Source: Escherichia phage YJin-2024a. Taken from it: a stretch of 64,000 bases of DNA. How positions within the stretch are numbered: the first letter of the stretch is position 1; every line of letters starts with the position of its first letter. The position numbers and the translations under genes were made by a program. Under the pieces are notes generated by a model. It had not been told where the DNA came from, did no database searches, and worked only from the letters and a program-made list of their open reading frames with translations. Shown piece after piece: positions 3-28,799 of this stretch. The stretch is from sequence record PP534475.1; one strand, 5' to 3'.

Positions 3-90
3 TGGTGGGGAAAGATGGAGTCGAACCACCCGAGTCGCAATGACAACTGATTTACAGTCAGCTCTGCTACCACTTACAGAATATTTCCCC
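3..90 (-). tRNA. tRNA-Tyr (anticodon GTA), class II with long variable arm
   Basis: Reverse complement folds with acceptor GGGGAAA/TTTCCCC, anticodon stem GCTGA/TCAGT, loop CTGTAAA, T-arm GGTGG-TTCGACT-CCATC, encoded CCA; resembles E. coli tRNA-Tyr from memory. Confidence 0.7.
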
Positions 91-221
91 ATATTTAGAA
101 GTATTCAAAAAATTCTAATTTAAACACTTTTAAATATGTTTCCAAATTAGATAACTATTATACCAAGTTTTAAGGCACTGAGCAAGTCAAATTTTAAAGA
201 ACTTGCTCAGTGCTGTATTAG

Positions 222-497
222 TTAGTCGAACTTAGGAGCGACAGTTAAGGAGAACGGAAGTTCGAAAACTTCTTCGCCCTCATCACTAACAGTAATTACA
301 CGACCTTTAAGTTCAGACATTGAAATATCAATATCAGCTTTTGCATCTGGAGCCATGCCAGCTTCAACACATTTAGCTTTAATTTCCGGCAGAAGTTCTA
401 CATCGTAGAAATAAAGCCATTCAATCTCACCTTCCCAGCCTTCCCAGGATTTACAGATTGCACTTTCAATACCAGTTGCTATAACACGATTTTGCAT
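222..497 (-). CDS. hypothetical protein
   Basis: 91-aa ORF downstream of a T5-type early promoter (approx 505-540, minus strand). Confidence 0.45.
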   Translation of the reverse strand: MQNRVIATGIESAICKSWEGWEGEIEWLYFYDVELLPEIKAKCVEAGMAPDAKADIDISMSELKGRVITVSDEGEEVFELPFSLTVAPKFD

Positions 498-587
498 TCG
501 TTAACTCCTTCATCAATTTATATAACTATTATACCAGAAATTTAAAGCAAAAGGCAAGTACATTTTTAAAAATTCTGTTTGGAGGAG

Positions 588-794
588 CTAAACTCCAGAT
601 TCTTCAGCCAAGTCTAGACTAATAAGAGATATAGCCATAATTGCCGCTCCATGTTCTTTTTCTCCAGTCTCTTTAGCTAGAGTTATAATGTCAAGAAATT
701 GCTTATGAAAATCTGCAACCTCTTGAGTTATACCTGCCTCAGCAATCATACCTTTAAGCATGAAACGTTGTGCGGTAATTTCAGGATTAGCCAT
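588..794 (-). CDS. hypothetical protein
   Basis: 68-aa ORF; start overlaps stop of upstream small ORF (ATGGCTAA). Confidence 0.45.
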   Translation of the reverse strand: MANPEITAQRFMLKGMIAEAGITQEVADFHKQFLDIITLAKETGEKEHGAAIMAISLISLDLAEESGV

Positions 795-954
795 GTTGTT
801 TCTCCAGTTTCATCTTTAATAGTCTACAAATAAAATCAATGTCTTCATCCGTGCCTAGATCTCTATCTTCAAGAGTTGCCTTGAAGTTTTTAGTCAATTC
901 CATAAGGATGACTTCCCTAGAACGACGTGTTGGCGGAGGTGGATGTCTATACAT
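787..954 (-). CDS. small Pro-rich hypothetical protein (55 aa)
   Basis: ORF below track threshold; stop overlaps the next start, suggesting translational coupling. Confidence 0.3.
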   Translation of the reverse strand: MYRHPPPPTRRSREVILMELTKNFKATLEDRDLGTDEDIDFICRLLKMKLEKQHG

Positions 955-969
955 CTTATTTCCTTAATT

Positions 970-1046
970 TGGTAGGGGTGGTGGGATTCGAACCCACAAA
1001 ACCTGAATTTTAAGTCCAGTACCTATGCCAATTCGATTACACCCCC
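970..1046 (-). tRNA. tRNA, probable anticodon TAA (identity uncertain)
   Basis: Acceptor GGGGGTG/CACCCCT, anticodon stem CTGGA/TTCAG with loop CTTAAAA, T-arm GTGGG-TTCGAAT-CCCAC, encoded CCA; D-stem pairs poorly and variable arm is short for Leu. Confidence 0.5.
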
Positions 1047-1147
1047 GTGTAATCAGTTTATTAGTTGATACATATTATAGCCTAGTGAAAATCCTACTAC
1101 TAGTCCCACAAACCAACCAATATAATAATCTTTTAGTTTCACAGGTA

Positions 1148-1333
1148 TTATCCTCGTTCAATATCTAGGGAAATACCACAGTTAGGATTAATACCTGTAC
1201 CACTGCAATTTGGGCAAACCCAGATATTGCAAAAAGTATCTCCTGCTTCTGCATCAGAACTTTCACCAATTCCCCTACACTCAGGGCAGACACATTCTTC
1301 TAGCTCTTGCTTGAGTTCTTGAAACTTAGACAT
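1148..1333 (-). CDS. small Cys-rich zinc-ribbon protein
   Basis: 61 aa with CPEC..CNIWVCPNC..C spacing typical of a zinc ribbon. Confidence 0.45.
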   Translation of the reverse strand: MSKFQELKQELEECVCPECRGIGESSDAEAGDTFCNIWVCPNCSGTGINPNCGISLDIERG

Positions 1334-1341
1334 ATAGTCTC

Positions 1342-1743
1342 CTAATTAAGTTTTTCAAAACGACCTAGAGAATCTCTAGTCATCTTATTTAAGATTTTTC
1401 CCATATTCTGCTTTCTTGTGAATAATTCTAGGTTAGGTAAAGCATTATTAGACTTATCATCATCTTTGTGCTCTATTTCATAGCCTTCCGGTATTTCACC
1501 GTTGAAAGCCATCCATACGAGTCTGTGCACATATTCATTTTTACCTAGTCCCTTATTGCAAATTTTCACCTGAAAATATCCAGATTTACCATTGCAACGT
1601 GGAGATAATACCTTTCCTTTTATAGTTCTAGTGTACTCGCTATATTGATTTCGTTGTGTTATTATTCTATCCTTAGTTTCTATTGTACCATTTAAGTGTA
1701 CAATTAAAATAACACCAAAGTACTCAAATTCAACCTTTTCCAT
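1342..1743 (-). CDS. HNH homing endonuclease
   Basis: HRLVW...IEHKDDDKSNNALPNLELFTRKQN matches the HNH motif; sits inside the tRNA cluster. Confidence 0.6.
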   Translation of the reverse strand: MEKVEFEYFGVILIVHLNGTIETKDRIITQRNQYSEYTRTIKGKVLSPRCNGKSGYFQVKICNKGLGKNEYVHRLVWMAFNGEIPEGYEIEHKDDDKSNNALPNLELFTRKQNMGKILNKMTRDSLGRFEKLN

Positions 1744-1757
1744 ACGTAATACCTAAT

Positions 1758-1832
1758 TGGTGGGTCGGAGGAGAATCTAACTCCTACTCATTAGCTTATG
1801 AGGCCACCGCTTTAACTTTAAGCTACCGACCC
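1758..1832 (-). tRNA. tRNA-like RNA with non-canonical anticodon arm
   Basis: Good acceptor GGGTCGG/CCGACCC, D-arm GCTT-AAAGTTA-AAGC, T-arm AGGAG-TTAGATT-CTCCT and CCA, but the only stable stem in the anticodon region (CTCAT/ATGAG) encloses a 6-nt loop. Confidence 0.4.
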
Positions 1833-1838
1833 TATGTT

Positions 1839-1932
1839 TGGAGGAAGATGCCAGACTCGAACTGGCACACCGTGTTTCCACAGTTACTGGCTGTTTAGCA
1901 AACAGCTCCCTTACCTTTAGGGTTAATCTTCC
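1839..1932 (-). tRNA. tRNA-Ser (anticodon GCT), class II
   Basis: Acceptor GGAAGAT/ATCTTCC, anticodon stem GCTGT/ACAGC with loop TTGCTAA, long variable arm, T-arm GCCAG-TTCGAGT-CTGGC. Confidence 0.65.
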
Positions 1933-1953
1933 AAATTTATAAGATATATTATA

Positions 1954-2466
1954 TTAGAAATTTAGCTTCATAGCAAGAAAATTTTTCAAGTTTTCGGTAG
2001 ACATCTCATCCACATCTATAGGAGAAACAAAGCCGTTTAATTTTCTAGCAAATTTTTCACCTGCAGGGTCATTATCCCCGACAGCTACCAATTTAAAAGG
2101 TAGTAATTTCAGTTGCTTTAATAACGCAACTGCCTTAAATACAGATTCAGCAATCAATACTACTTTTTCATCTCCATTGAGAGTTTCTAGTCCCCATACA
2201 CACTGGGTAGTAGAATGAGTAAAGTATTTAGCTTCAAAGGGGCACTTACCATGACCTTTTGGAGCAGAAGGATTATAAGTTTGATAGCCCCTCAACATCC
2301 CAGAGAAGTCATATAACGGGACTGTTAGCCATCCTTCCGGACTTAACCAGCAATGATATTTATCTGTATCAAATCCTCTAGATAAGAGGTGCTGTGTTAG
2401 CTCATCAACATTCATATTTGGTTCCTCTCTCAAATTTATAGATATATTATACAGAGAATTTAGCAT
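1954..2466 (-). CDS. hypothetical protein with Toprim-like motifs
   Basis: VVLIAESVFKA ... VAVGDNDPAGEKFARKL resembles the Toprim E and DxD signature. Confidence 0.4.
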   Translation of the reverse strand: MLNSLYNISINLREEPNMNVDELTQHLLSRGFDTDKYHCWLSPEGWLTVPLYDFSGMLRGYQTYNPSAPKGHGKCPFEAKYFTHSTTQCVWGLETLNGDEKVVLIAESVFKAVALLKQLKLLPFKLVAVGDNDPAGEKFARKLNGFVSPIDVDEMSTENLKNFLAMKLNF

Positions 2467-2590
2467 TCAAGCAATCAAATTTTTTAACTTTTTAGAGAAA
2501 AATCATAGGGCACTTAAGGATAGCAGATAAGTGGTGAGGACCAAAATTTGTGACCCCACTAAAAATCCGGGGGTAATTTTTAAAGACCCC

Positions 2591-2619
2591 TTGACATTTT
2601 CGCTGGGGTAGTGTAAAGT
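2591..2619 (+). promoter_or_regulatory. sigma70-type promoter TTGACA-17-TAAAGT
   Basis: Consensus -35, 17-nt spacer, near-consensus -10; AGGAGG RBS 8 nt before ATG at 2682. Confidence 0.6.
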
Positions 2620-2681
2620 ATATGTTATGGATGAGTGATCAAAGAGACACACATTTTCTATATACTAGGAGGTGTCAAAAA

Positions 2682-3674
2682 ATGACAGAAGAAGTAGCTA
2701 AGAGTCCTGAGACCGTCGCTAGCGTTGCAGCAGAACTGCACCGTCACGAGGAATCAGATAAGAAAAAGTGGGAGAAGGTCAGAGCCTACGAAGAGAAACA
2801 TCGTGAACACGATGAAGATGATGAAGAAGATGACGATGATGAGTATTGTCATAAATATGGAAAACGTAAAATGCAAGAACCAGTAAACGTATTCACTAGT
2901 GGCTTCCCTGGCCTAATGGGTGGTTACCCAGCAAACGCAGGTGCTTTCGGTGGTGAAGGTATGGGACTATTCGGAGCTATCCTAATCGGTGCTCTATTAA
3001 CAGGCGGATTCGGTGGTTTCGGTGGATTCGGTGGACGTGGTGTAGTTGGTGAAGGTACCGCAGTTGATGCAGTACTTCAGAACCAAGATACCGCTAGTAT
3101 TCTAGCAGCTATTAACACTACTCGTACAGAGGCTAACCAGGGTACTGGAGCTGTTTTAAGCGCAGTTAATAATGGTTTTAGCCAGACATCCCAAAACCAG
3201 AGCCGTGATACTCAGTCTGTACTAACTACGATCTATGGTACAGGTGCTAATCTGTCTAATCAGATCTGCCAGGAAACTCGCAACGTTATTCAGGGTCAGT
3301 TCGATCTTTCTCGCCAGATTGATCAAGCTTTCGCAGCTAATCAGATAGCTCGTGCACAAGATAAGTTTGATTCTGCACAGATCGCTTTCCAGCAGACTTT
3401 ACAAACTAATAACCAGTTTGCCGCTGTTCAGGCTCAGATGTGTGCTAACCAGAACTCTCTGGAACGTCAGATCGCTGAATGTTGCTGTGAACTTCAGACT
3501 GCGATTGCTGGTGTAACTACTGCGCGTATCCAGGATGAGTTAGACGCGTGTCGTCTACGTGAAGCAATCGCTGCGGGTAGCGGTGCTAACGGTCAGGTAA
3601 TTAATCAAATCGCTTTAAGTCTTGGTGCTATCACTCAGACTCTGGCTGGTCTGCAGGCTAAACTGCCGGCTTAA
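2682..3674 (+). CDS. membrane protein: acidic N-terminus, glycine-zipper segment, Gln/Asn/Thr-rich Cys-containing C-terminus
   Basis: Start moved to ATG 2682 because of the RBS; GGFGGFGGFGG hydrophobic Gly-zipper; DEDDEEDDDDE acidic tract; no recognisable family. Confidence 0.6.
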   Translation: MTEEVAKSPETVASVAAELHRHEESDKKKWEKVRAYEEKHREHDEDDEEDDDDEYCHKYGKRKMQEPVNVFTSGFPGLMGGYPANAGAFGGEGMGLFGAILIGALLTGGFGGFGGFGGRGVVGEGTAVDAVLQNQDTASILAAINTTRTEANQGTGAVLSAVNNGFSQTSQNQSRDTQSVLTTIYGTGANLSNQICQETRNVIQGQFDLSRQIDQAFAANQIARAQDKFDSAQIAFQQTLQTNNQFAAVQAQMCANQNSLERQIAECCCELQTAIAGVTTARIQDELDACRLREAIAAGSGANGQVINQIALSLGAITQTLAGLQAKLPA

Positions 3675-3695
3675 TATTAAGGGGAGGAGCCCATT

Positions 3696-4112
3696 ATGAG
3701 TAAATATGGTTTTGTAAATAACGGACTTAATCAAAGTATGGGCTCCCAGCAGCCCGTTCCGGGTCTGGATAACCCCTACTTACAACAGTTGCAACAGCGT
3801 TTAGCAGAAGCGCAACAGATGCAGCAACAACTCCAGCAAAACCCTGGAAGTGTAAGTCCTATGCAAATGATGCAGCAAATGAGCGGGCAGTCGCAAATGC
3901 CTCAACAAATGCAGCAACAGATGCCGCAGCAGCAAGTTCAGCAACAAACCCAACAACCGCAGGTTTCTGCGGAGGGACAGGCAGTACTAGCCCTTTTCGA
4001 AGACTTCGCAAAGACAGAGGATGGGAAACAGCTTGTATCACTTATGGGTAAGTTTAATAGCTTCTGCCAAAGCCAAGTTGCAAAAGCTCAAAATGGTGGT
4101 AATAACTCCTAA
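3696..4112 (+). CDS. Gln-rich low-complexity protein
   Basis: 138 aa with PQQMQQQMPQQQVQQQTQQPQ tract; GGAGG RBS upstream. Confidence 0.55.
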   Translation: MSKYGFVNNGLNQSMGSQQPVPGLDNPYLQQLQQRLAEAQQMQQQLQQNPGSVSPMQMMQQMSGQSQMPQQMQQQMPQQQVQQQTQQPQVSAEGQAVLALFEDFAKTEDGKQLVSLMGKFNSFCQSQVAKAQNGGNNS

Positions 4113-4121
4113 GGAGAAATT

Positions 4122-4316
4122 ATGTGTTGCAGAAAATCTGTTTCGTGCTGCCCAATGCCTGTAGCACGTTGTTGCTCTCCAGCAATGTTTACGCAAATAC
4201 CGGCGTTCAATCCGTTTGCCTTTAAGCCTACTCTTATCCTGCCCCCTAGAGTAGATTTTCAGTCAAGATTGGCCTCCCGTATGGGTGGTTGCTGTACACC
4301 GAGAGTGTGGTTCTAA
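4122..4316 (+). CDS. small Cys-rich hypothetical protein
   Basis: 64 aa with several CC pairs; last ORF before the terminator; may not be coding. Confidence 0.3.
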   Translation: MCCRKSVSCCPMPVARCCSPAMFTQIPAFNPFAFKPTLILPPRVDFQSRLASRMGGCCTPRVWF

Positions 4317-4329
4317 ACCAAAAACAAAA

Positions 4330-4362
4330 GCCCCTGCCGAAAGGTAAGGGGCTTTTTCTTTT
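4330..4362 (+). terminator. intrinsic terminator
   Basis: GCCCCT...AGGGGC hairpin with inner GAAA loop followed by TTTTTCTTTT. Confidence 0.7.
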
Positions 4363-4365
4363 GCC

Positions 4366-4408
4366 TTAAATACAGAAAAGCCCTGCGCTCTCCAGGAAAC
4401 GCAGGGCT
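4366..4408 (-). terminator. intrinsic terminator for the convergent SPFH gene
   Basis: 8-bp GC-rich hairpin GCCCTGCG/CGCAGGGC followed on the minus strand by TTTTCTGTATTT. Confidence 0.65.
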
Positions 4409-4432
4409 TACTTCAGATGTTACATGCGGGTA

Positions 4433-5380
4433 TTATTTATTACGCATATCCATAATCATTTGGCCATCGTAACCAGTTCCCACTACTGTTTGCGGTACAC
4501 CACCTTGGTATTTCTGAGCACGAATCATTTCGACTTCCAGTTGTTTCCAACGAATCATCTCAGGAGTAATGGTACGTTGCAGTGCGGCGTTAGCTTCAGC
4601 TTCTTTCTTAGCTGCATACAGTTTAGCATCTGCATCACGTTCGTTAGCAATAGCTTGGTTATTACGAGCTTCGCGATCTGCTTCTGCTTGTTTAACCTTC
4701 TGCTGTGCTTCTTGTTCAACACGAGCCAACTCAGCTTTTGCAGCATTAACTTGCTCTTCACGAACTTTGGTATTCTGTACCTGTTCCATGATTACTGGAG
4801 GCAGAGTAATATCCTGAAGGAATACCTGCTTAACTGTGTAACCATATGGGCGTGCATACTCTTCAACTTCTTGTTGAATTGCAGTTTGCAATTGAGCCTG
4901 AATTTTAGCATCAAACAAATCTTGTGCTTTAGGTACAGACTTACCAAACTCACGAATAGTAGACAGTAATTTTTCAGTTACATACTTGTCTAGCGCCTGA
5001 TCCTGAGTACCTGCGTTAATGCGGTTAATCGGTGCCTTAGAACCATCAAACTGCAACATAACAGTCAGGTCAACAGTGGATTTAAACTTATCCTGACTAG
5101 GAACCTGAAGTTTATCTAATTTTAGAGCAATATCTTTAGTACTAAAAGTATCGAAAGAAGCAAAAGGATTTACAATATGAAAGCCGGGTAATACTGGGCT
5201 AGGGTCAACTTTACCCAGGAAAGTCTGGGTTTTAACAGTACCGTCTTGAACAACAGTATAGGAGTTAAGGGCCAGAACTAAACCTACCAAACCAACTGCA
5301 GCACCAATACCCCAACGTTTGATATTACGCATCAATTTTTGCTCATAAGTCAGTTCTTTAGTGTTTTTAGTAGCAAACAT
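4433..5380 (-). CDS. SPFH/band-7 (prohibitin/HflKC-like) membrane protein
   Basis: N-terminal TM helix, SPFH-like core, long Ala/Glu/Gln-rich coiled coil (AKAELARVEQEAQQKVKQAEADREARNNQ). Confidence 0.65.
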   Translation of the reverse strand: MFATKNTKELTYEQKLMRNIKRWGIGAAVGLVGLVLALNSYTVVQDGTVKTQTFLGKVDPSPVLPGFHIVNPFASFDTFSTKDIALKLDKLQVPSQDKFKSTVDLTVMLQFDGSKAPINRINAGTQDQALDKYVTEKLLSTIREFGKSVPKAQDLFDAKIQAQLQTAIQQEVEEYARPYGYTVKQVFLQDITLPPVIMEQVQNTKVREEQVNAAKAELARVEQEAQQKVKQAEADREARNNQAIANERDADAKLYAAKKEAEANAALQRTITPEMIRWKQLEVEMIRAQKYQGGVPQTVVGTGYDGQMIMDMRNK

Positions 5381-5414
5381 ATATTTCCTTTGTTTTAGTT
5401 ACAGTTAATAAAAT

Positions 5415-5489
5415 TGGCCGAGGTGACAGGATTCGAACCTGCATAAAGGAATTTAGAAGACTCCTGCCTCTCCCTTAGACTACACCCCG
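5415..5489 (-). tRNA. tRNA-Arg (anticodon TCT)
   Basis: Acceptor CGGGGTG/CACCTCG, D-arm GTCT-AAGGGAG-AGGC, anticodon stem GGAGT/ATTCC with loop CTTCTAA, T-arm GCAGG-TTCGAAT-CCTGT, CCA. Confidence 0.7.
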
Positions 5490-23556: not shown

Positions 23557-24049
23557 TACTCCAATTATTTTTCTGGACATTGATGGGGTGCTCAATTCGA
23601 GCATCTCCCACCATCATGCACCTGATGATGAAAAGATTTTCTTTGGGAGTGACTGGGTTTTCAAACCGCTTCTCAAGGCTTTTCAAGATTTTATTCGTCC
23701 TTCCTCGATAATGATTGTTGGGGTATCCTCATGGTTCTCTGTCAGGAATGAGATGGAGAACGTTCAGATTATGACCGGATTAGGTCTTATCGATCGTTTT
23801 CTTGGTACAACGGATTTTACTGGTGGTGGATTATCTAGGGGTAATTCTGTTCTTCGCTTCGTTGAAAAGCATAAGCTCAAACATTGGTGTGTGCTGGATG
23901 ATGCCGGTGCTATGATGTATCAGTATCCAACGGTTATAGTCAATGGTAGGACTGGGATAAATCTTCAAGATTTAAAAGCTGTTAGCTATATGCTAGAATT
24001 TAGCCCAGATCTTGAAATGTGTAAATCCTTGCAACAATTTAAGGTGTAA
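23537..24049 (+). CDS. HAD-superfamily phosphatase
   Basis: Motif I FLDIDGVL and motif IV VLDDAG; overlaps the Sir2-like gene by 20 nt. Confidence 0.55.
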   Translation: MCQEISNTPIIFLDIDGVLNSSISHHHAPDDEKIFFGSDWVFKPLLKAFQDFIRPSSIMIVGVSSWFSVRNEMENVQIMTGLGLIDRFLGTTDFTGGGLSRGNSVLRFVEKHKLKHWCVLDDAGAMMYQYPTVIVNGRTGINLQDLKAVSYMLEFSPDLEMCKSLQQFKV

Positions 24050-24051
24050 AT

Positions 24052-24480
24052 ATGTTCAATAATGTATTCTCTAAAGAAGCTAACCCAATTTTGGTTAACT
24101 TTTGGCGTACTCTCCCAGCTAGCCTGTATAATGAGGCTATTAACTCTTTGAAAATATGGTGTGAGAATAACGAAATCTCCTTTGCTTTTAAAGATGATAT
24201 TGATGAGGCTCCCTGTATTGGTTTAATTGTGCAGGTAGAGGAGGGTCTTGAAGAGATTGTGGGCTGGAAAGAGTTAGACGAAATGGGCTTAGTTTTTGCG
24301 TTAAACTATAAGTTGTTTATGCCCAACAAACACCGTATTGCTATTAATTATAAAACTAGTGAATCTCCTGGTTTTCAGGTTAATGAACGTTACGGTTGGT
24401 CTTACTCACCAGAAGAAGTGAATGATGGCATCCAAAAACTTCGCCGTTTTGGTTATCAAATTCCGGGTTTAACTGCCTAA
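24052..24480 (+). CDS. hypothetical protein, paralog A of a tandem pair
   Basis: Shares with the next ORF the pattern D.PC.G......G.E...W.EL..MGL..ALN..LF.P......I...PGL. Confidence 0.5.
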   Translation: MFNNVFSKEANPILVNFWRTLPASLYNEAINSLKIWCENNEISFAFKDDIDEAPCIGLIVQVEEGLEEIVGWKELDEMGLVFALNYKLFMPNKHRIAINYKTSESPGFQVNERYGWSYSPEEVNDGIQKLRRFGYQIPGLTA

Positions 24481-24489
24481 GGAGGCAGG

Positions 24490-24879
24490 ATGGAACAAGT
24501 ATATTGGCGTCAGATTGACCCTAGTTTGGTGAAACGTGCGGAGAAGCTGCTACAACGTTGGTTGGGGGTAAGGCAAGCCTCCTTCACTTTTCCTGAGCAG
24601 CAAACAGATGATCCCTGTGTTGGTGTTTTCCTATCCGGCTACGCGGGGGAATGGGAATTAGATTGGAATGAATTGTCTGCTATGGGCTTGATTGTTGCCC
24701 TAAACTTCTCTTTGTTCCATCCACGTGGTTTGGCCATATGTCGTGTGCCGGATGACGGTTGTTCGCCCCATCTTTTACAGGTGGAAGATGATATTTGGGA
24801 GTACACTCCAGATATTCTCAAAGAAGCTAAAGAACAATTAAACCGTGTTGGGATCTATGTTCCGGGATTAAATGACTAA
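24490..24879 (+). CDS. hypothetical protein, paralog B of a tandem pair
   Basis: Same architecture as 24052-24480; own RBS AAGGAGG. Confidence 0.5.
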   Translation: MEQVYWRQIDPSLVKRAEKLLQRWLGVRQASFTFPEQQTDDPCVGVFLSGYAGEWELDWNELSAMGLIVALNFSLFHPRGLAICRVPDDGCSPHLLQVEDDIWEYTPDILKEAKEQLNRVGIYVPGLND

Positions 24880-24973
24880 TGATTTTTATTAGCTGAACTC
24901 TGATTACCGAGTCATTTTGGCTCGGATTATTACATAATCTTTCCAGTTAATTGACAGTATGAATAAATTGTCA

Positions 24974-25002
24974 TTGACAAATTGGATGGATTATGTAATA
25001 AT
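24974..25002 (+). promoter_or_regulatory. promoter TTGACA-17-AATAAT with TG extension
   Basis: Two TTGACA hexamers (24951, 24974) upstream of the HNH gene. Confidence 0.45.
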
Positions 25003-25021
25003 ATATGTATTGGAGGTAAAG

Positions 25022-25474
25022 ATGTCGCTCACACAACAAGAACTTTTAGATAATTTCCGATATGAAGATGGAAAATTATTTAGAACTACAGGAAGAAATG
25101 CAGGCAAGGAATGTTGTGTTTCAACGGGAAATGGTTATTACCGTATTTCTCTAGGGAGTAGAACTATGCTCCGACACAGAGCTATCTTCTTAATGCATCA
25201 TGGATACTTACCTGATTTGGTAGATCATGAGAACACTATAAAAGGTGATGATCGTATTGAAAATCTTAGGGAGCAGACAGTATCTGGTAATCTAAGAAAT
25301 ATCAAATATAAGAAAGGAATGCATGTTTACCCTTCTGGTAGTAAGAACTGGCAAGTAGTATTTACTATTAACCGTAAACGGATAGTTAAAGGAACATATG
25401 ACAACTATGAGGTTGCATGTTCTATGGCCAAGATGTTTAGAGGCCAATTATATGGTAGGGAATCAATCCAGTAA
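25022..25474 (+). CDS. HNH homing endonuclease
   Basis: HRAIFLMHHGYLPDLVDHENTIKGDDRIENLR is an HNH motif; start moved to MSLTQQ (RBS GGAGG). Confidence 0.6.
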   Translation: MSLTQQELLDNFRYEDGKLFRTTGRNAGKECCVSTGNGYYRISLGSRTMLRHRAIFLMHHGYLPDLVDHENTIKGDDRIENLREQTVSGNLRNIKYKKGMHVYPSGSKNWQVVFTINRKRIVKGTYDNYEVACSMAKMFRGQLYGRESIQ

Positions 25475-25482
25475 AATTTCAT

Positions 25483-25512
25483 TTGCAAGGGAGTATTATT
25501 TTATAGTATAAT
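25483..25512 (+). promoter_or_regulatory. T5-type early promoter TTGCAA-18-TATAAT
   Basis: Followed by CATAAATGAGAGAC leader; transcribes the ORF-poor region 25520-26000. Confidence 0.55.
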
Positions 25513-26009
25513 ATTCCCATAAATGAGAGACATTAGTAAAAATTGATTTTGCTAATTTTTCTTGTTTACAATCCGCGATACGGAACAGTTAGGCTGCCCC
25601 ATTAAGGGTTGTTTTAACTGTTACGTGTTGGTTTTTAAACAAATAGTTAATAGAATACTTAGCGATCTGCGTCCCGTAGGAACCCTGGTAAGGCCTCGAA
25701 GCAACCTAGATAGAGGTGGTTGTGAAGTGAGACGGGAGGAGTGAAAAACTCCGAGACGTGATTCTGTAAGTTATATTGCATCTAGTATGAGCTAGTATAT
25801 GAAGCATTAGGTGAGCAAATCTGGCTTAGCGGCCATCCTCAAGGATTTGTGCGGTATAGCAAAGCAGCAGCGCAGCGTGAAAGTGGAAGTTGCCACCCCA
25901 CTTCAGTATTTGCAATTAATTTGTTGAGAAATTGACAGTAACAGTTGTTCTATTCTCTCTGAATAGTCCTAAAGAAAACTTATTTCATTTCCAACACAGG
26001 AGTATTGTT

Positions 26010-28799
26010 GTGTTCTCAATCCTACAAGGTCATGCAGGATTTCATCGCGATTTAGCCACAGGCAATTGGCGAGAAGTTAAAGCAGAAGACTATCTTTTTG
26101 CTAAAAGATTTTCCTCAAAGCATCCTGAAGGTAAACCAGCTTCAATGCCCTTCAAGTTTGATGTAATTGATGAAGTTGATCCTCAAACCCTAGTAGAAAT
26201 GCTTCCTCTTATGAGACGTTTAACGTCTGACCCTCATATCGTTGCGGTACGAGGTCGATGTCTTGCACCTAAAAATAATGTGCGGCGTAAGAAGGGCAAC
26301 TTTAATGTATCTAACCCAAGTCATATAATTGCAATGGACGTGGATGGTATTGTAGATACAGGTGGTTGCAACAAGTTTGATCTTGTTGGCATGGCTCGAC
26401 ATATTATTAGAATGTTAAATAGTATTAGTGAGGATATGTTTCCTCTTGATGCAGGGTTTATCGCTCATGCATCGTCTTCGGCTGGGCTAAAACCAGGTAT
26501 CCGAATGCACTTAATACTAGAATCTAATGTTAAAGTAACTCAGGGTCAAATCAAATTCTTATTTACATCTATCAACGAAAGTAGTAGACAAAAGTATGGC
26601 TTTGATATTGCCGACTTAGCTTATTACTCTTCCGTACAGCTCCATTATTTTGCAGATCCGTTATTTACCGATGGTATAGTAGATCCGTTTAAAGCGGAGG
26701 GTGCTTCACGTCTGGTATTTGTTAAGGGTTCTAAAGTAAATTTACCTAATAATCTGGTTGACTATGAAACAACTAGAGGTGAGTTTAAGGAGGAGTTTTA
26801 CTCTTTACTCGACCAAATTAAAGGTAAAAAAGCTGCCTCCGATAAAGTAGAGGAAACTATCAGCGAACTAGAAGAAGCTGAGGATGGGGTGTATCTACGT
26901 ATTATCCCTAAACTCTATCATAGAGCTTTGGAGGATGGTGTTGATTTTGCATGGCTAGAAAAAGAAATTCGTCCAGCCTTATCAGAATATATTGCAACTA
27001 AAGATAATAGTCGTAATATTCAAGATTACTTTAATAATGGTCGTAAACAGGCTCTGAAAGCATTTGTTAATAATTCTAAACGTGATATACCCGATGTTTT
27101 AAAAGGTATTCCACTTAAAAAGCTAGAAACTAATTCTCTAGAAACTGATAACTTCTTGAAATTAAATACTGTACCACCAGAAGGTTATATGACTTTTGTA
27201 AAAGCAAGTCTAGGTACAGGTAAAACTACAGCGGTTGTGCGTTGGTTAGATTCAGGGGTTATTAAAGGTAATTTCTTAGCAATTACCAATACTCGAGCAC
27301 TGGTATCTTCAAATGCTAAGAAATTTAGTGCAGGACAATATGATAAGTCTGTAGATATGCTTAATTTTAAGCGTGGCGCTATTGACCGTATGTCCACAAC
27401 TATTCACTCTTTGCATAAGTTCAAGAGTTTTATTGGTCAAATCGATGCAATCTTTATCGATGAATGTGATGCTGTAATGAATGACCTATTATTCGCCCCT
27501 GTTGTTAAACAACGTCGTGAATGTATTCAGGTTCTTCGGGATATTCTTGCAACTGCAAAAATCATTATATTATCTGATGGGGATATTAGTGCAGAAACAA
27601 TTGAAGCATATGGTTCTTTGATTGAGTTTGATAAACCGGTTGCATTTTATAATCATCACCGTAAAATGCTATCAAAAGCTCATGCTTATGAGTTCCCTGA
27701 TGAATCCAGTATTTGGGTTGCACTTCAGACTTCTCTAGAAATGGGTGAGAAATCTATCCTAGTATCTGACTGTGGGCCGGATGAACTGAATGAGAAGGGT
27801 ATGGCACTGCGTCGTAATACGGGTGCGTTAGTTAAGGAAATCCACTCAAACTCCACATCTGATGTGGATATTAGACGTATTCTGGATTACACAACTAATG
27901 AGCTAATTGATCAACAAATTGATTGCTTATTATGTAGTCCATCCGTAACGAGTGGTGTTGACTTCAACTATTTTGATAACGTATTCGTTATTACTAGAAC
28001 CAGCAACCAAGCGCCAAACATGCGTTTCCAAGCAATCAGGCGCGACCGTGGCGCTCAGAACATTTATTATTTTATTGATAAATCTACGAGTGGATTCTCC
28101 GCAGGTTCTGAACAATATAACATTGATGAAGGTTGGCTGGAGTTAGCACAGCAACTATACGCACGTCGCAGGGAACTGGAGTCTAGGAATTATACTAGTA
28201 CTTTACGTTATTACTTGCTTGATCAGGGTGCAACTATTGATATTTTCAGTGAAAGCTGGGGAACTATCGAAGGTGCTGGGAAGGAATATACGGAAGAGCG
28301 AATCAAAGCCATTTTGCATTCAACTCCTGATTATTGTGCTCCACGCCATGCAGATGCGTATGAAGCTAAACTACTTCTTGTTCGTTATTATCATCTTGAG
28401 TCTATTAAAGATGTAACAGTTGAGCATGTTGAACAATATATCAAGGATAAACCGAATGATAGAGCTGCATTCTTCCATAAGATGCACGAGATGTTCTGGG
28501 AAGATATTAAGAAGTGCTCAAATGTCACTATCAAACCATTCATAGAAGCTCTGAAAGGCAAGAAGAAAGATTTCTTCCTTAAAACAGGTCAGAGTGCTAA
28601 CCCAAAATATGCCAGAATGTATCTTGGTATGATGGGTATTGGCAAGGATATGAACACGGAGAATATTGTAGACTGGTACAGAACTTATTGTAAAATCGAG
28701 TGTATGCCAATCCCATATAAGTTTATGACTGATGAGGAGAAACATATGCATGATGAAGCAATGGCAGAGCTAGGTGCTAGAAATGACAGTGAAGAATAA
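26010..28799 (+). CDS. primase-polymerase-like N-terminal domain fused to P-loop helicase (origin-binding-protein-like)
   Basis: N-terminal IIAMDVDG (hhDhD-like); Walker A SLGTGKTT, Walker B IFIDECD; probable GTG start at 26010 with AGGAG RBS 7 nt upstream (track ORF begins at TTG 25932). Confidence 0.55.
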   Translation: MFSILQGHAGFHRDLATGNWREVKAEDYLFAKRFSSKHPEGKPASMPFKFDVIDEVDPQTLVEMLPLMRRLTSDPHIVAVRGRCLAPKNNVRRKKGNFNVSNPSHIIAMDVDGIVDTGGCNKFDLVGMARHIIRMLNSISEDMFPLDAGFIAHASSSAGLKPGIRMHLILESNVKVTQGQIKFLFTSINESSRQKYGFDIADLAYYSSVQLHYFADPLFTDGIVDPFKAEGASRLVFVKGSKVNLPNNLVDYETTRGEFKEEFYSLLDQIKGKKAASDKVEETISELEEAEDGVYLRIIPKLYHRALEDGVDFAWLEKEIRPALSEYIATKDNSRNIQDYFNNGRKQALKAFVNNSKRDIPDVLKGIPLKKLETNSLETDNFLKLNTVPPEGYMTFVKASLGTGKTTAVVRWLDSGVIKGNFLAITNTRALVSSNAKKFSAGQYDKSVDMLNFKRGAIDRMSTTIHSLHKFKSFIGQIDAIFIDECDAVMNDLLFAPVVKQRRECIQVLRDILATAKIIILSDGDISAETIEAYGSLIEFDKPVAFYNHHRKMLSKAHAYEFPDESSIWVALQTSLEMGEKSILVSDCGPDELNEKGMALRRNTGALVKEIHSNSTSDVDIRRILDYTTNELIDQQIDCLLCSPSVTSGVDFNYFDNVFVITRTSNQAPNMRFQAIRRDRGAQNIYYFIDKSTSGFSAGSEQYNIDEGWLELAQQLYARRRELESRNYTSTLRYYLLDQGATIDIFSESWGTIEGAGKEYTEERIKAILHSTPDYCAPRHADAYEAKLLLVRYYHLESIKDVTVEHVEQYIKDKPNDRAAFFHKMHEMFWEDIKKCSNVTIKPFIEALKGKKKDFFLKTGQSANPKYARMYLGMMGIGKDMNTENIVDWYRTYCKIECMPIPYKFMTDEEKHMHDEAMAELGARNDSEE

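Follow-up and report, generated by a model that had tools for sequence, protein, structure and literature searches.

What lies between the early promoter and the start codon of the D2-type helicase gene in T5-like phages, and why is so much sequence kept there without a gene? The question arises at positions 25519-26009 of a 64,000-nucleotide stretch of Escherichia phage YJin-2024a (record PP534475.1), hereafter called the window, whose source is a T5-like phage (Tequintavirus; Demerecviridae relatives). A first inspection of the letters alone (the sequence-only reading) had noticed a structured untranslated leader there, between an HNH gene and a gene taken to encode a primase-helicase. It had offered four explanations: a regulatory leader, a stable non-coding RNA, a replication origin beside its initiator gene, or an intron remnant. 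Here, alignment of homologous leaders shows that compensatory changes have preserved the predicted secondary structure in five or more phage lineages, and the leader is very probably a functional, structure-conserved RNA. As far as the resources searched show, T5-like phages have here a family of large structured RNAs that no catalogue lists, linked to the D2 gene.

The leader region is matched in 445 records of T5-like phages (Demerecviridae), in a single place per record, the closest match being Escherichia phage Stokescottia (99.8%). Homologous leaders were gathered from IMG/VR, metagenomes and GenBank phages, giving 44 distinct sequences in five deep lineages: A, that of the window; B, T5 and Epseptimavirus; K, Klebsiella phages; M, Pectobacterium phage My1; and D, Pectobacterium phage DU_PP_V. 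The metagenome scan contributed few new lineages. Identity between the five is only 36-56%, the ends of the leader being near-invariant and the middle having diverged past detection by blastn. Distances are held in all five: from the conserved motif of hairpin P0 there are 421-446 nt to the start codon and 249-258 nt to the motif CUUAGCGG. When RNAalifold and minimum free energy (MFE) predictions are run separately for each lineage, they yield a common architecture. From the 5' end come H1, P0 and the long-range helix P1/P2, inside which P3x/P3 encloses P4 (with P4b), P7, a variable segment and P5; then come P6, H3 and a hairpin at the start codon. The + strand leader of the window folds more stably than shuffled sequences, with an MFE z-score of -3.0 to -4.0.

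Covariation was counted by deriving the structure from lineage A (107 pairs) and scoring it on a MAFFT alignment of the 44 sequences. Pairing is seen in 84.1% of cells, against 33-46% when partners are slid by 1-3 columns; 45 of the 107 pairs are changed on both sides (20-29 after sliding), and the covariation score is 0.221 (0.06-0.095 after sliding). None of 500 shuffles attained the observed pairing percentage, both-side-change count or covariation score. The covariation in related phages that the sequence-only reading had proposed to look for is thus present, and the loss of conservation and structure at homologous loci, which by its own account would have spoken against it, is not what is found: the fold is kept in five lineages. 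The strongest helices are P3, P5, P5a, P0 and outer P1. Several others score lower solely from the shifted register of lineage B in the MAFFT alignment; on direct reading, each helix sits at a common position across lineages, with a sequence that differs by lineage. Compensatory changes also occur inside lineages, G-C becoming A-U in P3, P4 and P7 and U-A becoming G-C in P6 within lineage A, and P3, P4b, P5 and P6 varying within lineage B. The support therefore does not rest on one split between A and B. A covariance model of the P5-P6 piece (R1) was seeded from A, K and one metagenomic sequence (L053) only, because MAFFT put A and B out of register in that piece. It detects lineages M, B and D, absent from the seed, at E 4e-5 to 0.015, and weakly a Providencia-phage lineage and one other; in the Vibrio, Aeromonas or 43%-identity group it finds no match. 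In the alignment fitted to this model, which leans towards the model, all eight pairs of P5 are changed on both sides, with up to six pair types at a position.

The predicted fold starts with H1, the 5'-terminal hairpin (25520-25568; this and all other elements of the leader are on the + strand). Its core, GAGAGA-C-AUUAGUAAAA facing UUUUGCUAAU-U-UUUCUU, contains G.U pairs and is predicted at -16.3 kcal/mol (z -5.7); equivalents with other sequences are found in the Klebsiella, My1 and DU_PP_V phages (z -3.1 to -3.8), making four lineages in all. Hairpin P0 follows (25568-25612) and bears the near-invariant motif GAUACGGAACAGUUAGGCUGCCCCAUU, most positions of which are invariant in the 44 sequences of the five lineages. 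Its helix 1 is 97.6% paired, and GG/CC is replaced by AG/CU in the Klebsiella lineage. In IMG/VR the motif is confined to T5-like contigs; nine further matches to the P0 pattern outside such contigs, all without the extended motif, were rejected as chance.

Next comes the long-range helix that encloses about 265 nt. Its 5' arm (25615-25659, made of P1 at 25615-25648 and P2 at 25653-25659) pairs with a 3' arm at 25905-25947 (P2 at 25905-25911, P1 at 25914-25947). In six of six representatives of the five lineages this P1/P2 duplex has 28-39 bp and -25 to -38 kcal/mol, against -9 to -13 kcal/mol for shuffled arms; duplex prediction on unrestricted halves of the leader over-extended and was uninformative. 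Alignment column 55/398 in P1/P2 shows compensatory G-C, A-U and G.U pairs. Two segments complementary to each other in the window, AACAGTTA (25585) and TAACTGTT (25615), had suggested a local hairpin to the sequence-only reading. This local pairing is superseded: TAACTGTTAC pairs over the long range with GTAACAGTT at 25938-25946, and the long-range pairing covaries where the local one does not. In lineage B the second segment becomes TAACTATT and the partner at 25938-25946 becomes GTAATAGTT in step, T5 having the G.U intermediate, and the conserved pairing is therefore the long-range one.

Inside P1/P2, the 5' strands of P3x (25662-25664) and P3 (25667-25672) are separated by a conserved AU bulge and together span 25662-25672; their 3' strands lie at 25870-25878. 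These helices are 96.9% paired, with five of nine pairs changed on both sides, and P3 reads CUGCGU/GCGCAG, CUACAU/GUGUAG, CUGUGU/GCACAG, CUAGAA/UUCUAG or CUACAC/GUGUAG at the same position, depending on the lineage. The P4 domain (25673-25736) is closed by helix 25673-25677/25732-25736, with the variants CCCGU/ACGGG, ACCC/GGGU, UGCGG/CCGCG, UUCG/CGAA and CCCG/CGGG, and holds inner hairpins including P4b (25701-25706/25718-25723), which at equivalent positions is GCAACC/GGUUGU, AGCUC/GAGCU, UAUUUGUUC/GAGCAAAUA, GCGGCA/UGCCGA or ACAAUC/GAUUGU. Hairpin P7, GGAGU-GAAAAA-ACUCC (GGAGTGAAAAACTCC, 25738-25752), had already been noticed in the sequence-only reading and proves real: it covaries, being AGAGU/ACUCU in relatives and GGUC/GACC in the Klebsiella lineage, with no clear equivalent in the T5 lineage. 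Lineage predictions differ in the variable segment that follows (25753-25814), which is excluded from the counted structure; it holds the CTAGTAT repeat, which is present as the sequence-only reading stated and gives no sign of function. Beyond it lies P5 (25815-25850; helix 25815-25822/25843-25850), capped by P5a, GGCU-UAGC-GGCC (25823-25834). The apical CUUAGCGG hairpin of P5/P5a is invariant; in the MAFFT alignment P5 is 99.1% paired, with seven of its eight pairs changed on both sides, and P5a is 98.3% paired.

On the 3' side, between P3 and P2, P6 forms the hairpin AAGUGG-loop-CCACUU (25881-25903), replaced at the same position by AAGGGG/CCCCUU, AUAUGA/UCAUAU, GUAUGG/CCAUAC, GAGG/CCUC or AAGGG/CCCUU. 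Directly 3' of P1 stands H3, CUAUUC-UCUCU-GAAUAG (25950-25966), which becomes CUAUC/GAUAG in the Klebsiella lineage and CUUUCC/GGAAAG in DU_PP_V, its position unchanged. The last element contains the Shine-Dalgarno sequence AGGAG (25998-26002) and the GTG start codon (26010-26012) inside a small hairpin, AACAC/GUGUU; the Klebsiella lineage has AACAU/AUGUU instead, and L037 and similar relatives in lineage B have AACAU/GUGUU. Covariation is seen in H3 and in the start-codon hairpin, and their spacing from P1 is held at 55-63 nt. On the full alignment RNAalifold also gives an alternative long-range pairing, of GGAACAG (25582-25588) with UUGUUCU (25945-25951), which is in competition with the top of P0 and with the base of H3. 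Its two strands show almost no variation, and in the Klebsiella lineage both of its G.U pairs are converted, to A-U and G-C. This pairing could be a switch or a tertiary contact.

On which strand, and in which molecule, does the fold act? Paired columns hold 703 G.U and U.G cells against 103 A.C and C.A cells (about 7:1), and 17 of the 107 pairs in the window fold are G.U. Since these G.U pairs are mismatches on the opposite strand, and a palindrome acting in duplex DNA would not tolerate them, the fold belongs to the sense strand. Taken with the conserved promoter, this points to RNA, the displaced + strand of DNA being a minor alternative. The promoter is an early sigma-70 site at 25483-25512 on the + strand (-35 TTGCAA, 25483-25488; 18-nt spacer; -10 TATAAT, 25507-25512), with 10 of 12 consensus matches. 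Already proposed in the sequence-only reading, it was found again by a promoter scan, its -35 and -10 elements are kept in lineages A, B and K, and T5 record AY587007 carries the annotation "putative early promoter T5P32" at the homologous place. From its spacing, transcription is inferred to start at about 25519, so that the whole untranslated leader of the D2 helicase mRNA (25519-26009) measures 491 nt, or about 0.49 kb, not the 0.4 kb or so first estimated. A second promoter-like site, at 25543-25572, is not retained in the Klebsiella lineage and was treated as chance. Because the + strand has no promoter-like site at 25573-26386, that is downstream of 25572, and no terminator-like site was found inside the leader, the D2 mRNA must carry at least the structure from P0 to H3. 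Nor did the scan find a promoter-like site on the - strand within 25519-26009.

The leader is non-coding, with no open reading frame (ORF) conserved across relatives. The sequence-only reading had found no convincing one, and this view stands: the sole longer frame, of 60 codons from a TTG (25562-25744), has only 50 codons in close relatives and does not exist in the T5 lineage, and small leader ORFs have no match among PHROG families. The 38-codon frames of lineages A and B encode unrelated peptides, are not homologous, and are interrupted by stops in other members. Some records annotate "hypothetical proteins" of 30-60 codons in the leader, others leave the region blank, and T5 records give the promoter only. 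The start at GTG 26010, suggested at the outset, is supported by the AGGAG just upstream, by the annotated starts of T5, Stokescottia, Lindwurm and HildyBeyeler (ribosome-binding site and start are annotated in relatives), and by alignment with an invariant Met-Phe N-terminus whose first codon is ATG in three lineages. The G+C richness described by the sequence-only reading is real and modest: 0.41-0.475 at 25600-25899 against about 0.39 for the window.

The leader matches no known RNA family. With Rfam 15 (cmscan, 24000-27500, E<=10), the search that the sequence-only reading had called for and one that takes in riboswitches, ribozymes, RNase P, 6S, tmRNA and small RNAs, the best scores are 13-22 bits against gathering thresholds of 34-98 (E 0.2-10), and none of them falls in the structured core. 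Five homologous loci searched at E<=1 give no match either, intron models included, and ARAGORN finds no tRNA or tmRNA in the leader region. Short resemblances to motifs of RNase P RNA and 5S ribosomal RNA (rRNA) had no backing from the Rfam models and were dropped. CsrA-type GGA motifs, counted by eye, are not enriched, and loop-loop complementarity between P4b and P6, also sought by eye, shows nothing consistent across lineages. A full-text literature search returned no description of the leader RNA; its coverage is incomplete and an earlier description is conceivable. The leader shares features with the large ornate RNAs of bacteria and phages (GOLLD, ROOL, OLE, HEARO and raiA), being several hundred nucleotides long, multi-helix, supported by covariation and phage-encoded. 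Those RNAs differ in that they are usually free-standing genes, often near tRNAs, and none of their Rfam models matches the D2 leader.

The gene that the leader precedes (26010-28799, + strand, 929 amino acids) encodes a D2-type helicase or "replication origin binding protein". Residues 394-533 match Pfam PF02399, the herpesvirus-type origin-binding helicase domain, which has been reported at the equivalent position in the bipolar helicase D2 of T5 (PMC3632103). In the PDB the protein resembles origin-binding proteins of the herpesvirus UL9 type (E 2e-5), and the NCBIfam plasmid Rep helicase family CyRepA1 matches below its cut-off. Residues 1-390 (window 26010-27180) are conserved across the family and have no match in Pfam, NCBIfam or PDB sequences. 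Of the "primase-helicase" in the sequence-only reading, the helicase part therefore holds, as an origin-binding-protein type; the "DNA primase" label found in several records is not supported by domain searches, because the N-terminal 390 residues match no family.

What, then, does the RNA do? Both a regulatory leader and a stable non-coding RNA, as first suggested, are compatible with a transcribed, non-coding, structure-conserved RNA upstream of D2. We favour, at about an even chance, a leader that acts in cis on D2 expression, because each genome has one copy of the RNA, always immediately before D2, because H3 and the start-codon hairpin covary at fixed spacing, and because the Demerecviridae subfamilies keep a long gap at this place. 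All those examined (Pectobacterium, Vibrio and Aeromonas phages) have 590-1590 nt of non-coding sequence before the D2 homologue, even where no RNA homology is detectable. An RNase III substrate calls for a helix of about 20 bp or more with few interruptions, and P1/P2, at 28-39 bp, has the dimensions of such a double-stranded substrate and is a probable site. Cleavage there would free the 5' hairpins and the inner domain of about 265 nt from the D2 message, which would retain H3 and a start codon partly buried in its small hairpin. The likely places for a protein to bind are the P0 motif and the CUUAGCGG hairpin. That protein, possibly D2 or else a different factor, early or from the host, would set the amount of the initiator helicase.

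Several known systems resemble such a leader in part. RNase III-processed phage leaders, such as the lambda N leader and the R sites of T7 early mRNA, likewise place a long, near-continuous double-stranded helix upstream of a ribosome-binding site in an early transcript. The sites known in those phages are local hairpins, about 20-30 bp long, that lack any conserved multi-helix insert of 265 nt; the D2 leader, whose cleavage is a prediction, has no sequence or family relationship to them or to the long-range stems that flank 16S and 23S rRNA. In the plasmid initiator leaders (IncFII repA/CopT; the repA/repZ pseudoknot of IncB and IncI-alpha), a fold in the 5' leader of an initiator gene governs its translation, and the GGAACAG/UUGUUCU complementarity of the D2 leader could act similarly. 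The D2 leader is several times larger and no antisense-RNA promoter or leader peptide was detected in it; the homology is conceptual only. In T4, the gene 32 pseudoknot, the gene 43 hairpin and the RegA sites also control the mRNAs of replication proteins by structure near the 5' end, and the D2 start codon is partly sequestered in a covarying hairpin; these translational operators occupy tens of nucleotides, against about 430 nt under structural constraint in the D2 leader.

A number of points count against the case for a structured, cis-acting leader. Sequences within a lineage are close kin, so the cell counts overstate the number of independent events, and the shuffles ignore relatedness. 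The MFE z-score is unremarkable in the Klebsiella (-0.4) and Providencia (-0.9) lineages, and the pairing is not settled for the 3' half of lineage B or for 25753-25814. Anti-Shine-Dalgarno pairing, sought by eye, is nowhere consistent across lineages. RNase III cleavage and a protein partner are guesses from the anatomy of the leader. Finally, about 265 nt of conserved multi-helix structure far exceeds the needs of an RNase III site or a simple translational operator.

Among other roles, that of an origin-associated RNA is one that we consider possible though improbable. The early transcript would be a cis element of the central T5 origin, a folded pre-primer or R-loop RNA used by D2 and processed by a nuclease to prime the leading strand. 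The position suits it: T5 replication origins have been reported near the genome centre, and the T5 locus lies at 59.05-59.54 kb of 121.75 kb (48.5-48.9%). D2 resembles a herpesvirus origin-binding helicase and a plasmid Rep helicase, and the strong early promoter is followed by 50 AT-rich nucleotides. The transcripts of ColE1 RNA II and of T4 oriF and oriG offer the parallel of a promoter-driven transcript of about 0.5 kb beside replication functions, and RNA II, of comparable length, requires a specific fold. T5 also encodes a UvsW-like helicase, D10 (PMC5180179), and UvsW of T4 removes origin R-loops (work cited in PMC5180179).

Origin signatures at the DNA level are missing, and of the origin suggested by the sequence-only reading only the position remains. 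There are no iterons, just two-copy short repeats at chance level, and the AACAGTT copies change in concert as a base-paired helix instead of staying fixed. DnaA-like boxes occur at chance rate. The G+C content of the leader (0.36-0.475) is above that of its surroundings, with no AT-rich minimum, and the cumulative GC skew of the window turns at about 18 and 46 kb, probably tracking the direction of transcription, not at the leader. The D2 leader differs from RNA II and the T4 origins in having no antisense partner or promoter of RNA I type, no mapped origin and no G-run/C-run pair to form a hybrid, and no requirement for a conserved fold is known for the transcripts of the T4 origins. The old mapping by electron microscopy was coarse, with multiple origins reported, and no finding requires DNA synthesis to begin at the leader; what selection has kept is a strand-specific fold, not a duplex-DNA motif. 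The fullest version, in which the leader RNA is the core of the central origin of T5-like phages, a pre-primer bound by D2 via the P0 and CUUAGCGG hairpins and converted into the primer of the first round, is less probable still. If true, the origin of a large virulent phage would depend on RNA structure, a design unlike both that of ColE1 and the T4 R-loop.

Equally doubtful is an excised RNA acting in trans. Here RNase III would cut P1 and free a domain of about 300 nt (approximately 25615-25947) to bind a host or phage factor, and the place in the D2 leader would merely give early expression. The model is that of the rRNAs, where a long-range stem surrounds a large folded RNA that is cut out. 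The closing duplex of 28-39 bp is kept across lineages in length and not in sequence, and the inner domain forms a multi-helix fold of its own, with invariant loops, exceeding known translational operators in size. Furthermore, the RNA core behaves as an exchangeable cassette that recombines within conserved ends, because in three leaders (L015, L023 and L028) inner cores of A or B type are joined to flanks of the other type. An RNA acting in trans leaves the strict synteny unexplained, for the element is found nowhere but directly upstream of D2, in one copy, and distant members without a recognisable homologue retain a long leader at D2, which suggests a role bound to the locus. Elements outside P1 (H1, P0, H3 and the start-codon hairpin) are also conserved at least as well as the core.

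Much less credible is a signal in single-stranded DNA, in which the fold would form in the displaced or unwound + strand and serve priming, like a single-strand initiation signal or a plasmid single-strand origin (sso). The strand asymmetry suits + strand DNA equally well. Elements of the ssoA type, found on rolling-circle replicons, carry an RSB site and, in a terminal loop, the CS-6 hexamer TAGCGT; the invariant apical loop of the leader has TAGCG, a resemblance in which the sixth base differs. Against it stands a strong conserved promoter placed exactly so as to transcribe the element, which continues into the ribosome-binding region. Its G.U pairs, tolerated in RNA, would be weak as G.T in DNA. 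A phage with its own replication machinery has no known need of an sso, and the rolling-circle type of replicon that uses ssoA does not fit. Least tenable of all is an intron remnant or HNH cargo, or a set of small unannotated protein genes: the HNH_3 gene does end at 25474 and some records do annotate hypothetical proteins of 30-60 codons, but that gene is sporadic and absent from most RNA-bearing relatives, models of group I (RF00028) and group II introns give no match, at E<=10 in the window and at E<=1 in five homologues, what lies upstream is a terminator and a promoter and not an exon, the D2 N-terminus is intact from 26010 in all lineages, and the small ORFs are truncated or interrupted, with unrelated peptides and no PHROG match. 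The intron remnant of the sequence-only reading was thus rejected.

The HNH_3 endonuclease gene itself (25022-25474, 150 amino acids, PF13392) is free-standing between an upstream terminator and the leader promoter (24959-25474), with its own promoter-like site at 24974-25002. It occurs in a few relatives only, for example Stokescottia, SP76, L005, L015 and L023, and is missing from Lindwurm, HildyBeyeler, T5 and most of the 445 RNA-bearing records. Because the phages that carry it have a version of the leader promoter, from -35 to about +6, that is not that of T5, the difference suggests co-conversion of the flank at the HNH insertion. The genes farther 5' are Sir2-like or small and hypothetical. 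The window begins, on its left, with five tRNA genes (Tyr, Leu, Met, Ser and Arg; 3-5489, - strand), as expected for a T5-like tRNA region.

Some leaders carry an additional piece. A 97-nt module is inserted directly after H1 in L003 (2560-2660) and also in L010, L025, L032 and L135, at the point corresponding to 25563/25564 of the window, and is flanked by duplicated TTTTTCTT. Lineages A and B both have it, in 51 phage records altogether, as one copy of 90-100% identity, with no Rfam match and no significant fold, and is either an optional leader module or a small insertion element.

More distant members of the Demerecviridae show leaders of other kinds. In L038-L042 (My1; Vibrio phages Brizo, D153 and PG07; Aeromonas phage TS3), the gap before the D2 homologue has no credible gene and starts with a strong promoter-like site; that of D153 is annotated as four hypothetical proteins of 29-55 codons. 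Between the Vibrio thalassaviruses L039 and L118, about 720 nt upstream of the D2 homologue hold, at predicted pairs, 17 structure-preserving and 6 structure-breaking substitutions, against 2-8 preserving and 16-26 breaking in slid controls, the structure being predicted from that very alignment. One phage carries an additional insert of about 95 nt. The Vibrio leader may be an independent or very distant structured leader. That of PG07 (L041, 1434-1604) contains an exact direct repeat of about 57 nt, GACTATCACTTTGTAGCCTCAATCCTCGGATTGTGTGAGTCAGTTAACTTCTGTCG, in copies about 114 nt apart, and a 22-nt long-range inverted repeat with arms 454 nt apart. In the 1.6-kb leader of Aeromonas phage TS3 (L042, 219-1818), UUAGCGG occurs three times, once capping an 11-bp hairpin, CCCGAAAAGCU-UAGC-GGUUUUUCGGG, and CGGAAC also three times. 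By eye, the two motifs are those that stay invariant in the T5-type RNA (model R1 gave no score), and the TS3 leader is possibly a repeated, distant version of the T5-type domain. The Providencia phages (L035, 2018-2329, and L036), together with L033 and L034, have a 17-bp long-range helix whose arms are separated by 278 nt, and a hairpin resembling P5 that contains GCUUAGCGGC; the domain lies about 100 nt farther from the start codon, and the P0 motif is unrecognisable.

T5 has long served as a model phage, and its T5-like relatives are widespread in collections for therapy and biocontrol. A fold of about 430 nt preserved in more than 440 sequenced phages marks a functional element that has been ignored or mis-annotated as tiny hypothetical proteins, and it would give the catalogue a further class of large structured RNA, from a phage that is well studied. 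With its defined helices and two invariant hairpins, the leader RNA offers a target that can be mutated to address the control of D2 at the RNA level and the question of an RNA-dependent origin. It also has practical value for annotation and phage engineering, since insertions at what has passed for an "intergenic" leader would not be neutral.

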